Origin: Candidatus Bathyarchaeia archaeon
GTDB taxonomy: Archaea > Thermoproteota > Bathyarchaeia > Bathyarchaeales > DTEX01
DNA: 64,000 bases
Assembly (NCBI GenBank): GCA_038817885.1
Contig: JAWAZE010000001.1
Span: forward strand, 8,941-72,940
Direction: 5' to 3'
Shown here: positions 27,126 through 34,169 of the stretch, piece after piece
How positions within the stretch are numbered: position 1 is the first letter of the stretch
How the letters are laid out: the number at the start of each line of letters is the position of its first letter
The notes under the pieces: generated by a model
Database searches by the model: none
The model's input: the letters and a program-made list of their open reading frames with translations, nothing else
Told to the model about the DNA's origin: nothing
Translations under genes and position numbers: made by a program

Positions 27126-28379
27126 GTGTGCCGTAGAGAACCATTTGAAGAACCATACATAAATGAGATTAAAGAATTGGCAGAAGCAGCTGATTATGAG
27201 GTTGCTGGTATTGTTGAGCAGATAAGATTGCCTCATCCACGCTACAATATAGGTCCGGGAAAAGCTAAGGAACTCGCTAAGATGGTTAAAGATGTTGGAG
27301 CAGAGAAGGTAGTCTTTGGGAATGATCTTAAAACAATTCAAATATATAATCTTGCCAAGATAACTGGCGTAGAAGTAATTGATCGCTTCCAGCTAATTTT
27401 AGAGATATTTGTTAAGAGGGCTTCAACGAAGGAAGCTAGACTACAAATTGAGTTAGCGCGGTTACAGTACGAGTTGGCTCATGCTAAGGAGAAGGTTAGG
27501 CTTGCTAAGATGGGCGAGCAGCCCGGCTTTCATGGACTAGGTAGGTATGAAGCAGACGTCTATTATAATGCGATTAAAAGGCGAATTCATAAAATTCAAG
27601 AAAAACTTAGAGAGATTAGAAGATTAAGAGAGGTCCATCGAGCGCGCAGGGCTGAGGCTGGCTTCCCCCTTATTTCGTTAGCCGGGTATACAAATTCTGG
27701 TAAAAGTACGCTCTTTAATGCTCTGACAAAAGAAAATGTTTTAACTGGACCGGATGTCTTCACAACTCTCTCCACGACGACAAGAGTTACAGAGGTTTTT
27801 GGGGAGAAGGTTTTCGTGACGGATACTGTTGGCTTCATAGATCGTTTACCTGTAACTCTAATTGAAGCCTTCTATTCAACCTTGGAAGAGATAGTATACT
27901 CTGATCTAATATTATTGGTCGTTGATATAAGCGATCCGATTAACGAGGTTGTGAGGAAATTTACAGCCTCATTTGAAGTTTTAAGGAAGATAGGTGCGGC
28001 CGGGATACCTACAATAATCGCTTTAAATAAAATCGACCTACTTTCTCAAAGAGAATTAGATGGGAAGACTAAGCATTTAGGCACAATCTATACAAGCTTA
28101 AAATTTATTCCAATATCCGCCCTTTATGAGACTAATTTAGATTTACTTAAGATGGAAATGGCCAGGTTTCTAAGAAGATATAAGGATCTAGCCTTTATAG
28201 TGCCAGTGCGCCAAGAATCGCTCTCCCTTCTCTCATGGATCTATGAAAATACAAAAGTGCATAAAGTGACGTATAATGATGATTCTTTAGAGGTGTATCT
28301 CGGCGCGCCGCAAAATTTGATAGAGAGAATTAAAGATTTCATTGAGAGGATCGGTGGCAAGATTGTGCCATCAGCATGA
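27126..28379 (+). CDS. hflX: GTPase HflX
   Basis: HflX N-domain plus coiled-coil 'ARLQIELARLQYEL'. G1 'LAGYTNSGKSTLFNALT', G3 'DTVGFI', G4 'NKIDL'. Confidence 0.9.
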   Translation: MCRREPFEEPYINEIKELAEAADYEVAGIVEQIRLPHPRYNIGPGKAKELAKMVKDVGAEKVVFGNDLKTIQIYNLAKITGVEVIDRFQLILEIFVKRASTKEARLQIELARLQYELAHAKEKVRLAKMGEQPGFHGLGRYEADVYYNAIKRRIHKIQEKLREIRRLREVHRARRAEAGFPLISLAGYTNSGKSTLFNALTKENVLTGPDVFTTLSTTTRVTEVFGEKVFVTDTVGFIDRLPVTLIEAFYSTLEEIVYSDLILLVVDISDPINEVVRKFTASFEVLRKIGAAGIPTIIALNKIDLLSQRELDGKTKHLGTIYTSLKFIPISALYETNLDLLKMEMARFLRRYKDLAFIVPVRQESLSLLSWIYENTKVHKVTYNDDSLEVYLGAPQNLIERIKDFIERIGGKIVPSA

Positions 28380-28911
28380 TTGGAAAGTCTTTGTCCTCAG
28401 ACTTGGACATAGGCCTGAGAGAGATAAGCGTGTTACGACGCATGTTCTTCTTGTCGCCAGAGCCTTTGGCGCCCATGGAGCCTTTTATAGTGGTCAAAGG
28501 GATGCGAAGATCGAGATGAGCATTAGGAAGGTTGTAGAATCATGGGGAGGTTCCTTCACCGTGAAATATATTGAAGACTGGGTTAAAAAAATAAAGGAAT
28601 GGCAAAAAGATGGCGGCGAAGTTATACACTTAACCATGTATGGCATACCATTAGACGATGTTATCCAAGAAATAAGGGATTCAAAAAAAGATAAACTTAT
28701 AGCTGTCGGCAGTGAAAAGGTTCCGAGAATTGTTTACGAGCTCGTGGACTGGAATGTTTCAATAACATCCCAACCGCATTCTGAAGTCGGAGCTTTAAGT
28801 GTTTTTCTGCATGAACTGTATATGGGGAGAGAACTTAAGAAGGAGTTTGAGAACGCAAAAATAAAGATTATTCCGCAGGCAAGGGGGAAGAAAGTCATAA
28901 GGATTTCATGA
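28342..28911 (+). CDS. tRNA (cytidine56-2'-O)-methyltransferase aTrm56 (SPOUT)
   Basis: 'VLRLGHRPERDKRVTTHVLLVARAFGA' is the Trm56 signature N-terminus. The true start is probably an internal GTG/TTG near 28354-28363, because the ORF-track start overlaps hflX by 38 nt. Confidence 0.8.
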   Translation: MRGSVARLCHQHDWKVFVLRLGHRPERDKRVTTHVLLVARAFGAHGAFYSGQRDAKIEMSIRKVVESWGGSFTVKYIEDWVKKIKEWQKDGGEVIHLTMYGIPLDDVIQEIRDSKKDKLIAVGSEKVPRIVYELVDWNVSITSQPHSEVGALSVFLHELYMGRELKKEFENAKIKIIPQARGKKVIRIS

Positions 28912-33425: not shown

Positions 33426-33725
33426 ATTATTAAATCTACATCTGAGGAGCTTAAAAGCATAAACATTGAGAGTTCAAAAAAGAAGATTTTAATTGGGCCG
33501 CCTAAACTCACTCGTTTTGAAAAAGCTAGAATTATAGGCGCGAGGGCATTACAGATAGCTATGGGCGCCCCAATCTTAATAGAGGTTAAAGAAAATATGA
33601 AGAGCCCAATAGATATTGCGCTTGAGGAATTGAAACGCGGCGCCCTACCAATAACGATTCGTAGAACCCTCCCGAATGGAACCTACCAAGATATACCTTT
33701 AAAATGGCTTCTAGAAGAGGGATAA
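33426..33725 (+). CDS. rpoK: DNA-directed RNA polymerase subunit K (Rpo6/RpoK)
   Basis: Not in the ORF track. My translation of frame 3 gives '...[81 protein letters not shown]'. The frame is open from 33417 to the stop at 33723-33725. It has no ATG/GTG/TTG upstream of the conserved domain. The start is provisionally placed at ATT 33426. Confidence 0.8.
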
Positions 33726-33731
33726 AAGAGT

Positions 33732-33854
33732 GGATTGCCAGCTTTCCCGGCTTCGCGGGGCCGAAGACCCCACTAAAACCGGGAACGGAGCGCGGTTTAA
33801 CTTCCAAGTTCGGAATGGGTTTGGGTGTTTCCCGCACCCTTTGGCCGGCAATCC
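33732..33854 (-). rRNA. rrf: 5S ribosomal RNA
   Basis: The reverse complement reads GGATTGCCGGCCAAAGGGTGCGGGAAACACCCAAACCCATTCCGAACTTGGAAGTTAAACCGCGCTCCGTTCCCGGTTTTAGTGGGGTCTTCGGCCCCGCGAAGCCGGGAAAGCTGGCAATCC. It contains the universal 5S 'CCGAAC..GGAAGTTAA' loop-B/helix-III core and an 11-bp terminal helix I. That helix extends 4 bp further to 33728/33858, possibly a processing stem. Confidence 0.9.
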
Positions 33855-33926: not shown

Positions 33927-33954
33927 TGGATTCTCACCAAGTTTTTATGATGGT

Positions 33955-34150
33955 GGGGCTGTGGTCTAGCATCAGCCCATCCAAGTGGGCTGCTAGAGAG
34001 GTATGACGACTGCTTAGTGCGGCTCCGCTCAAGCCGTTAAGGGCTCCAGATGCCAGAAAACGGGTTTACTGACCCGGTTTAGGGGATGAAGACTGTCTGG
34101 AGCTTGGAGAAACCCGTAGGTCGCCGGTTCAAGTCCGGCCAGCCCCACCA
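33955..34150 (+). tRNA. Intron-containing tRNA, best reconstruction tRNA-Val(UAC), with genomically encoded CCA
   Basis: Acceptor GGGGCTG (33955-61) pairs with CAGCCCC (34140-46), followed by A73 and CCA. T arm GCCGG-TTCAAGT-CCGGC (34123-39). D arm GTCT-AGC...GGTA-TGAC. The total of 196 nt means ~120 nt of intervening sequence. See findings for details. Confidence 0.8.
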
Positions 34151-34153
34151 TCA

Positions 34154-34169
34154 TTTTTAAAGCCTTTTT
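34154..34169 (+). terminator. Oligo-T tracts downstream of the tRNA (archaeal-type terminator)
   Basis: Two T5 runs (34154-58 and 34165-69) lie directly after the CCA end. Confidence 0.35.

Follow-up and report, generated by a model that had tools for sequence, protein, structure and literature searches.

Which tRNA, if any, is encoded by a 196-nucleotide (nt) segment of archaeal DNA that starts with GGGGCTG and ends with CAGCCCC-A-CCA but exceeds a 77-nt tRNA in length by about 119 nt? The segment occupies positions 33955-34150 (+) of a 64,000-nt stretch of contig JAWAZE010000001.1 from a Candidatus Bathyarchaeia archaeon (GCA_038817885.1, positions 8,941-72,940, forward strand); this whole stretch is referred to here as the window, and coordinates are those of the window. 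An earlier description made from the letters alone (the sequence-only reading) had recognised an archaeal tRNA gene interrupted at three sites, one of them in the D loop, and had assigned it to valine. The exons obtained by comparison and the splice motifs analyzed here bear out the three interruptions and change the identity. We consider it about 90% probable that the gene encodes tRNA-Trp(CCA), is interrupted by three protein-spliced introns, and carries in one of them a guide predicted to methylate the anticodon arm of its own tRNA. As such, the window gene joins two known kinds: multi-intron tRNA genes spliced at bulge-helix-bulge (BHB) motifs, and tRNA-Trp introns that contain a box C/D guide.

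Exons, introns, and identity of the gene

The frame of the gene had been read correctly from the letters. It consists of a 7-base pair (bp) acceptor stem formed by GGGGCTG (33955-61) and CAGCCCC (34140-46), A73 at 34147, an encoded CCA at 34148-50, the T arm GCCGG-TTCAAGT-CCGGC, and the two halves of the D arm, GTCT and TGAC; the excess length had likewise been recognised. The division of the remaining letters into exons and introns was derived from comparison. Species-representative genomes were scanned with the 3' 25 nt of the gene, which gave ten loci and, together with the window, 11 aligned genes. One of these, L005, lacks introns 1 and 2 and reads contiguously as GGGGCTGTAGTCTAGCCAGGTATGACGACGGGCTCCAGA (core GGTATGACGACGGGCTCCAGA), with its D arm joined straight to ACGGGCTCCAGA. 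As L005 reads contiguously, the junctions GACGAC-GGGCTCC and AGC(A/C)-AGGTA are fixed (the hyphen marks the join).

Across the 11 genes, GGGCTCCAG, ACCCGT, and CTCCAGA are invariant, and exon 1 varies only at positions 9 and 17. Mean pairwise identity is 98% in the exons and 73-81% in the introns, and all 11 genes give a near-identical 77-nt product. The TAC that had been taken for the anticodon is found in the window and three relatives; in the other seven of the ten, whose exons are otherwise identical, it is replaced by TGC. With L005 contiguous, the exons conserved, and CTCCAGA invariant while TAC varies, the gene is therefore assigned as tRNA-Trp(CCA). Comparison with related genomes, which the sequence-only reading had itself recommended, points to a different isotype and a different exon structure from the ones it had drawn.

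The spliced 77-nt product contains U8, A14, G15-C48, G18, G19, U33, G37, T54, T55, C56, A58, C61, and A73. Identity elements of tRNA-Trp are the anticodon CCA, the archaeal/eukaryal-type discriminator A73, and the G1-C72 pair, and all three are present here. The 3' strand of the anticodon stem, CCCGT, finds its partner in AC (34009-10) and GGG (34041-43), two pieces split by the 30-nt second intron. A minimum free energy (MFE) fold of the product contains the acceptor, anticodon, and T arms, whereas the weak 3-bp D stem is not predicted. ARAGORN returns tRNA-Trp(cca), 77 nt each, for all 11 genome-derived genes and for the 21 representatives of different intron architectures on which it was run.

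The valine assignment deserves explicit comparison with this structure. It proposed a tRNA-Val(UAC) built from exons ending in GACG, ACGGGTTTAC, and a last exon beginning AACCCGT, with introns at 33971-99, 34009-59, and 34070-110. Such a spliced sequence folds as a cloverleaf and is accepted by ARAGORN as tRNA-Val(tac), and the D arm resembles that of tRNA-Val from Haloferax volcanii (PMC2584109 supplement). ACGGG (34060-64) is indeed complementary to CCCGT and is literally its sole contiguous partner, as had been stated, although the real partner is the split AC and GGG. ARAGORN, a check that had been suggested together with the valine model, finds nothing on the raw locus and returns Trp(cca) once the sequence has been spliced in part or in full; as it accepts both spliced models, it cannot discriminate between Val and Trp. 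The decision instead comes from the relatives and from the splice motifs. The supposed anticodon reads TGC in the seven close relatives noted above, L005 joins its D arm directly to ACGGGCTCCAGA, and in no equivalent register do the second and third proposed introns form more than 0-2 of 4 central-helix pairs. The proposed exon at 34060-69 is intronic, corresponding to the D' guide described below plus the first base of box D', and this register is kept in 114 of 121 introns. Nor is there an intron at a 36/37-type position, the third intron being an ordinary 37/38 one. Taken together, the tRNA-Val(UAC) assignment can be set aside with near certainty.

For the splice sites, the layout of a BHB was taken from drawings of H. 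volcanii pre-tRNAs (PMC2584109 supplement), in which each strand of a 4-bp helix leads into a 3-nt bulge and the cut falls behind the second bulge nucleotide. All three introns of the tRNA-Trp gene have this 3-4-3 form, with 4 of 4 bp in the central helix (Table 1), and the cut after the second bulge nucleotide is confirmed, as the intron-less L005 fixes the junction of intron 2. In a test anchored on the junctions, all three introns reach 4/4 central pairs with h + h' of at least 3, a level attained by just 0.5% of the placements that an intron could have in the gene. Among the orthologues, 94% of cells in the intron helices are paired, compared with 28-45% in slid controls; five pairs change on both sides, which amounts to modest covariation, and the inner helix of intron 1 shows compensatory changes. 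Splicing of intron 1, which is absent from L005 and from most metagenome orthologues, yields the 9-nt D loop AGCA-AGGTA, as in genes that lack it (AGCCAGGTA). The D-loop insert of the sequence-only reading was thus real, with its register off by 1 nt at each end (the intron is 33972-33998). The TCTA/TAGA helix offered for it has no adjacent inner or outer helix and would leave a D loop of 7 nt versus the 9 nt of intron-less orthologues.

When these motifs are placed into the context of tRNA maturation, a sequence of events can be proposed. A precursor of about 200 nt would be transcribed, within which each intron and its flanking exons would fold as a BHB. Cleavage by a splicing endonuclease would occur between the second and third nucleotides of every 3-nt bulge, and joining of the exons by a ligase would produce the 77-nt tRNA with its encoded CCA. 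The D arm could form only after introns 1 and 2 had been removed, as their central helices borrow strands of the future D stem. A comparable set of introns is found in the nuclear tRNA-Ile(UAU) gene of Cyanidioschyzon merolae, which also has three BHB introns across the cloverleaf (there in the D arm, at 37/38, and in the T loop), and for which experiments show that the peripheral introns are removed before the 37/38 intron; the same order is plausible here. That gene differs in being eukaryotic and in having no intron-encoded guide RNA. In both non-canonical introns (1 and 2) the outer helix h has just 1 bp, making them relaxed HBh' motifs, and the literature links introns of this kind to a broad-specificity splicing endonuclease. 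This agrees with the expectation that the window gene would need a relaxed-specificity enzyme.

A gene with 119 nt of inserts that standard tRNA finders fail to recognise might also be a decayed tRNA pseudogene, or a tRNA-derived repeat that has accumulated insertions. We regard this as very improbable. Between species-level genomes the exons are 98% conserved and the inserts variable, splicing at the BHB around each insert would lead back to one and the same 77-nt product, and all 21 architecture representatives tested yield a Trp tRNA that ARAGORN accepts. In addition, the gene sits beside a 5S rRNA gene in L002, L006, L007, L009, and L010 as it does in the window, where it is also flanked by a TATA-like element and T-runs.

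The guide-like elements of the third intron

In the third intron of the tRNA-Trp gene, a D' guide, box D', box C', a D guide, and a box D-like element succeed one another, the layout of a box C/D RNA. By the N+5 rule, the target of such an RNA is found at the fifth paired nucleotide, with an antisense element of 10-12 nt upstream of D' or D (PMC7994747), and both guides of the intron conform to this arrangement. The target of the D' guide, AAACCCGT, comprises the last two intron bases and positions 38-43, and its N+5 nucleotide, G34064, pairs with C39 (34113). In the D guide, the N+5 nucleotide G34100 pairs with C34 (34046), and the MFE fold of the precursor contains this duplex. Boxes C' and D' can form a kink-turn (K-turn), with a C stem, a 3-nt bulge (G-A-U in the window), and the G.A and A.G pairs.

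Conservation of these elements was followed in a larger set. With the anticodon arm and the 3' splice region as anchors, a scan of metagenomes added 120 loci, and 121 distinct canonical introns were compared. Box C' (ATGA[A/C]GA) and a 12-nt guide with its N+5 position at C34 are kept in 118 of the 121, and a D' box (C[G/T]GA) whose guide has its N+5 position at position 39 in 114; the features of the C'/D' K-turn are retained in about 118. The linker between D' and C' is throughout a hairpin of 2-5 bp, formed by 29 distinct pairs of stem sequences and leaving 0-1 unpaired nt before the AU of C'. This hairpin covaries, with two pairs changing on both sides. As a separate observation, the base at D' position 2 goes together with that at C' position 5 (G-A 51 and U-C 26, versus 18 and 16; Fisher p = 3e-4, kinship uncorrected), which would match the non-Watson-Crick 3b.3n pair of a K-turn. 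As phylogeny is uncorrected in this comparison, the association is not relied on here.

A strong parallel is provided by the tRNA-Trp intron of Euryarchaeota (Pyrococcus sR50; H. volcanii), which occupies the same 37/38 position in the same host gene. The 103-nt intron of H. volcanii pre-tRNA-Trp guides Cm34 and Um39 according to reviews. Its BHB likewise pairs CUCC with the 3' end of the intron and has the bulges A36-G37-a and a-a/u-A38, and its elements share the order D' guide, D', C', D guide, with N+5 targets at positions 34 and 39. The similarity extends to the guides themselves: both introns have UCUGGAG plus 2 nt before box D (CCCUCUGGAGUU before CCGA for C34 in H. volcanii), and in both the D' guide covers the last intron bases and positions 38-43 (ending GCUGAUAUA before CUGA for position 39 in H. 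volcanii; both from the PMC2584109 supplement). There are differences as well. The window intron is shorter (62 versus 103 nt), its target at position 39 is C and not U, and its C'/D' is closed by the covarying hairpin, as a K-turn, and not by a loop. Its box D is degenerate, and neither a terminal box C nor a terminal stem can be recognised in it. Finally, the host belongs to the TACK lineage, and its gene has two additional non-canonical introns.

On the basis of these correspondences, the proposal that intron 3 would work like the box C/D intron of tRNA-Trp is well supported. It may be viewed as the ancestral 37/38 intron with its guide, in which a C'/D' K-turn is flanked by two antisense elements. 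If the N+5 rule applies, the D' guide would select C39 and the D guide C34 for 2'-O-methylation, as in euryarchaeal pre-tRNA-Trp. As the guide duplexes and the BHB of intron 3 share nucleotides, methylation would take place before splicing, or in trans by the excised intron. The guide duplexes of tRNA-Trp were reportedly described as conserved in euryarchaeotes by Clouet d'Orval in 2001, and to our knowledge an intron-encoded guide for Cm34 and Nm39 of tRNA-Trp has been characterised only in Euryarchaeota. As the predicted Cm34/Nm39 guide is now placed in an archaeon of the TACK lineage, it can be argued that the guide-bearing intron is ancient.

Several observations weigh against this interpretation of the gene and its third intron. 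No conserved or geometrically satisfactory terminal box C was detected in the four places searched: 12 nt upstream of the D' guide there is just ATGCCAG in the window and nothing conserved in other clades; a candidate overlapping the 5' splice junction, cAGAUGC, is confined to the window clade; and the junction of a circularised intron and the exonic AUGACGA (positions 21-27) are both unsatisfactory. Merely 5-13 A-rich nt precede the D' guide. Box D is degenerate across orthologues, with TGGA in the window clade, GTCA in 42, and also TTGA, GTGA, AAGA, and GTTA. As terminal box C and terminal stem are unrecognisable and box D is degenerate, the intron conforms only in part to the full box C/D family. 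Among curated C/D families in Rfam, the sole match is an insignificant one to sR3 (11.2 bits versus a gathering score of 41, E = 3.2). With regard to splicing, a loose BHB scanner finds 26 matches in the gene compared with 16.8 +/- 5.2 in shuffles (about 16 per 196 nt); as this scanner is too permissive, counts alone are uninformative, and the junction-anchored test was therefore used. A strict hBHBh' motif would have 2 bp or more in each outer helix; all three introns fall short of this and are relaxed (HBh' or hBH), so that predicted cleavage depends on the type of endonuclease. No EndA gene was found among the ten neighbouring proteins scanned, and a literature search on the EndA type of Bathyarchaeia returned nothing. 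The unspliced window copy, moreover, is recognised by neither ARAGORN nor Rfam RF00005.

In view of the missing terminal elements, it could be speculated that the gene is a tRNA-Trp with three BHB introns whose third intron holds boxes that are structural relics, serving BHB folding or an alternative precursor without guiding methylation. The absence of a recognisable terminal box C and the degeneracy of box D in most orthologues (GTCA, GTTA, and others) would agree with this, the pairing of TCTGGAGC with the exon could simply stabilise the precursor, and the H. volcanii intron is dispensable for viability. Such a scenario would not account for a distance of exactly 12 nt from C' to the last guide nucleotide in 118 of 121 introns, for C' and D' being conserved along with a covarying closing hairpin, or for the match of both N+5 positions to the targets of the H. 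volcanii and Pyrococcus introns. We therefore consider relic boxes unlikely and prefer a functional guide in intron 3. One K-turn alone does not account for the way in which C34 would be measured. A guide with one K-turn, if confirmed, would bear on the minimal architecture of box C/D ribonucleoproteins.

ARAGORN reports no tRNA in the whole 64-kb window; with one intron allowed it calls tRNA-Ser(gga) with a 112-nt intron, which is an artefact of forcing a single intron. When just the two non-canonical inserts are removed, it returns Trp(cca) with the canonical 62-nt intron. Rfam at gathering thresholds has the 5S rRNA as its sole match in the window and no tRNA, and a permissive search (E <= 10) matches the 3' end of the gene as tmRNA-like and nothing else of the gene as tRNA. 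Orthologues with the canonical intron only, as distinct from the window copy, score 45-53 bits with RF00005 against a gathering score of 29. An annotation based only on ARAGORN or Rfam would make the genome appear to have no tRNA-Trp, and pipelines that enable long introns could spread the wrong Ser(gga) isotype.

Table 1. Features of the tRNA-Trp gene and its flanks, in window coordinates.
Feature	Position	Strand	Details
Exon 1	33955-33971	+	17 nt, positions 1-17: acceptor 5' strand, U8, G9, D-stem 5' GTCT, D loop AGCA
Intron 1	33972-33998	+	27 nt, D loop 17/17a; from comparison and BHB
Intron 1 BHB	CTAG 33966-69 / CTAG 33993-96		bulges CAT 33970-72 and AGA 33997-99; h' = 8 (CAGCCCAT / GTGGGCTG), h = 1
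Exon 2	33999-34010	+	12 nt, positions 17a-28: AGGTA, D-stem 3' TGAC, G26, A27, C28
Intron 2	34011-34040	+	30 nt, anticodon stem 28/29; from comparison and BHB
Intron 2 BHB	GACG 34005-08 / CGTT 34035-38		one G-U pair; bulges ACT 34009-11 and AAG 34039-41; h' = 4 (GCTT/AAGC), h = 1
Exon 3	34041-34049	+	9 nt, positions 29-37 (GGG, CTCCAG); anticodon CCA at 34046-34048
Intron 3	34050-34111	+	62 nt, canonical 37/38; holds box C/D-type dual guide
Intron 3 BHB	CTCC 34044-47 / GGAG 34106-09		bulges AGA 34048-50 and AAA 34110-12; adjacent h' = 0, h = 3 (GGG/CCC; 5 after intron 2 removal)
D' guide AAAACGGGTTTA	34057-34068	+	core ACGGGTTT (34060-67) complementary to AAACCCGT (34110-17), 8 bp
Box D' CTGA	34069-34072	+	orthologues: CGGA 68, CTGA 44, CAGA 2
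Hairpin closing C'/D' K-turn	34073-34085	+	CCC 34073-75 / GGG 34082-84, then one unpaired G
Box C' ATGAAGA	34086-34092	+	6/7 match to RUGAUGA; orthologues: ATGAAGA 71, ATGACGA 44
D guide CTGTCTGGAGCT	34093-34104	+	12 nt; 11/12 positions pair with G30-G37 and the first intron bases
Box D-like TGGA	34105-34108	+	overlaps BHB strand GGAG; status as a true box D uncertain
Exon 4	34112-34150	+	39 nt, positions 38-76: A38, CCCGT, variable loop AGGTC, T arm, acceptor 3' strand, A73, CCA
5' leader ATGATGGT	33947-33954	+	8 nt; complementary to A73-CCA and four trailer bases (34147-34154)
TATA-box-like element TATATAAAA	33918-33926	+	about 29-37 nt upstream of mature 5' end; read directly, putative promoter
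Two T5 runs	34154-34158 and 34165-34169	+	read directly; plausible archaeal terminators
5S rRNA gene	33733-33852	-	Rfam at gathering thresholds, 71 bits

Orthologues with one to five introns

The tRNA-Trp gene of the window is one member of a graded series. Intron architectures of the genome and metagenome loci were derived by spliced alignment with clade-specific references; these replaced alignment to the window mature sequence alone, which had given spurious solutions with 6-8 "introns" in divergent clades. Intron number ranges from one to five per orthologue, with about eight insertion sites in all. Eight loci have the canonical 37/38 intron only, and the commonest architecture adds a 43/44 intron to it (about 42 loci). 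The window type, with introns at 17/17a, 28/29, and 37/38, is found in seven loci besides the window. About 15 loci combine an intron in the D loop with introns at 28/29, 37/38, and 43/44 (L001:1259-1498, L003:1845-2085(-), L004:135-376, L008:1848-2090(-), and about 11 from metagenomes). Five introns, at 10/11 (in the D loop in L085), 28/29, 37/38, 45/46, and 59/60, are present in 13 metagenome loci (L123:466-689, L060, L078, L016, L049, L074, L087, L114, L021, L033, L096, L127, and L085).

In the four-intron loci, the three introns of the window gene are joined by a 43/44 intron of 40-42 nt, with the central helix ACCC/GGGG, the bulges GTA/AAA, and the inner helix GGAGCA/TGCTCC. Nearly all junctions of the five-intron genes are 3-4-3 BHBs in which at least 3 of the 4 central pairs form (2/4 at one T-loop junction of L078), and every spliced product is a 77-nt tRNA-Trp according to ARAGORN. 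In five-intron loci such as L123, L074, and L087, the 10/11 and 45/46 introns have near-identical boundaries (CCGTAG followed by the intron, aca...(t)ggcgg plus 2 nt), and both use the central helix CCGT/GCGG. This suggests that one of the two may have arisen by copying of the other into a similar target sequence. Two four-intron loci, L076 and L128, have a 28/29 intron of 81-90 nt versus 16-39 nt elsewhere; that of L076 contains two TGATGA and two CTGA motifs, which are unconserved in L128.

Multi-intron tRNA genes of this general kind are known from Thermoproteales such as Pyrobaculum calidifontis and Thermofilum pendens, which have up to three BHB introns at D-arm and anticodon-stem sites, include relaxed HBh' motifs, and are missed by standard finders. 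The window gene is unlike these in belonging to the Bathyarchaeia lineage and in having orthologues, all of one gene, that range from one to five introns. According to reviews and the tRNAscan-SE 2.0 paper, the maximum for an archaeal tRNA gene is three introns, and we found no report of archaeal tRNA genes with more than three in the literature searched. The tRNA sets of Asgard archaea (Atabeyarchaeia and Freyarchaeia) offer another likeness, with many non-canonical or multiple introns outside the Thermoproteales, although they belong to a different phylum. A 2023 preprint describes these sets as very intron-rich, and its main text gives neither a per-gene maximum nor details of tRNA-Trp; as such, priority for more than three introns is not claimed here.

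We put forward, as a tentative view that is somewhat short of an even chance, that, among the cis-spliced tRNA genes described, those for tRNA-Trp of the Bathyarchaeia type are the ones most broken up by introns (one to five of the BHB kind, spread over about eight sites), with the ancestral 37/38 intron being a minimal box C/D guide that has two antisense elements, a single K-turn, and no terminal C/D pair. If this is true, the series would amount to a natural experiment on how introns are gained, lost, and duplicated, with the window copy as its three-intron member, and it could reveal the order in which overlapping BHBs are processed.

Host and surroundings of the locus

The sequence-only reading had noted that three-intron tRNAs are known mainly from Thermoproteales-like archaea. 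The SPOUT methyltransferase encoded beside the tRNA gene has 100% identity to an NCBI protein labelled "Candidatus Bathyarchaeia", and the ten genomes that match the 3' 25 nt of the gene are all Bathyarchaeia or Bathyarchaeota metagenome-assembled genomes, except one labelled just "uncultured archaeon". Judged by these matches, the host is a member of the Bathyarchaeia and not of the Thermoproteales.

The 5S rRNA gene and the tRNA-Trp gene are transcribed divergently, 102 nt apart, and this pairing recurs in the five relatives named above; a 5S gene is also near the tRNA in L064 and L090. An 83-amino acid open reading frame (33586-33837, -) overlaps the 5S gene and is probably spurious. The other neighbours are of a housekeeping type: a CBS protein, the SPOUT RNA methyltransferase, an aspartate dehydrogenase, an H+-PPase, a Mut7-C RNase-domain protein, TFE, and aTrm56. 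The last is a homologue of the protein-only tRNA Cm56 2'-O-methyltransferase, encoded 5 kb upstream (28342-28911, +; Pfam PF01994, E = 1e-50). As it is present, some tRNA ribose methylation in this organism would be protein-only, while that at Cm34 and Cm39 of tRNA-Trp appears to be RNA-guided.

Upstream of the tRNA gene, a (C/T)ATATA(A/T) block resembling the TATA-like element of the window occurs at equal distance in orthologous loci. The pairing between the leader and the trailer is perfect in the window and lengthens the acceptor helix of the precursor to 15 bp. Read by eye, L001-type loci are without this pairing, and in L002 and L009 it persists with both strands changed (TGTTGGT / ACCAACA).

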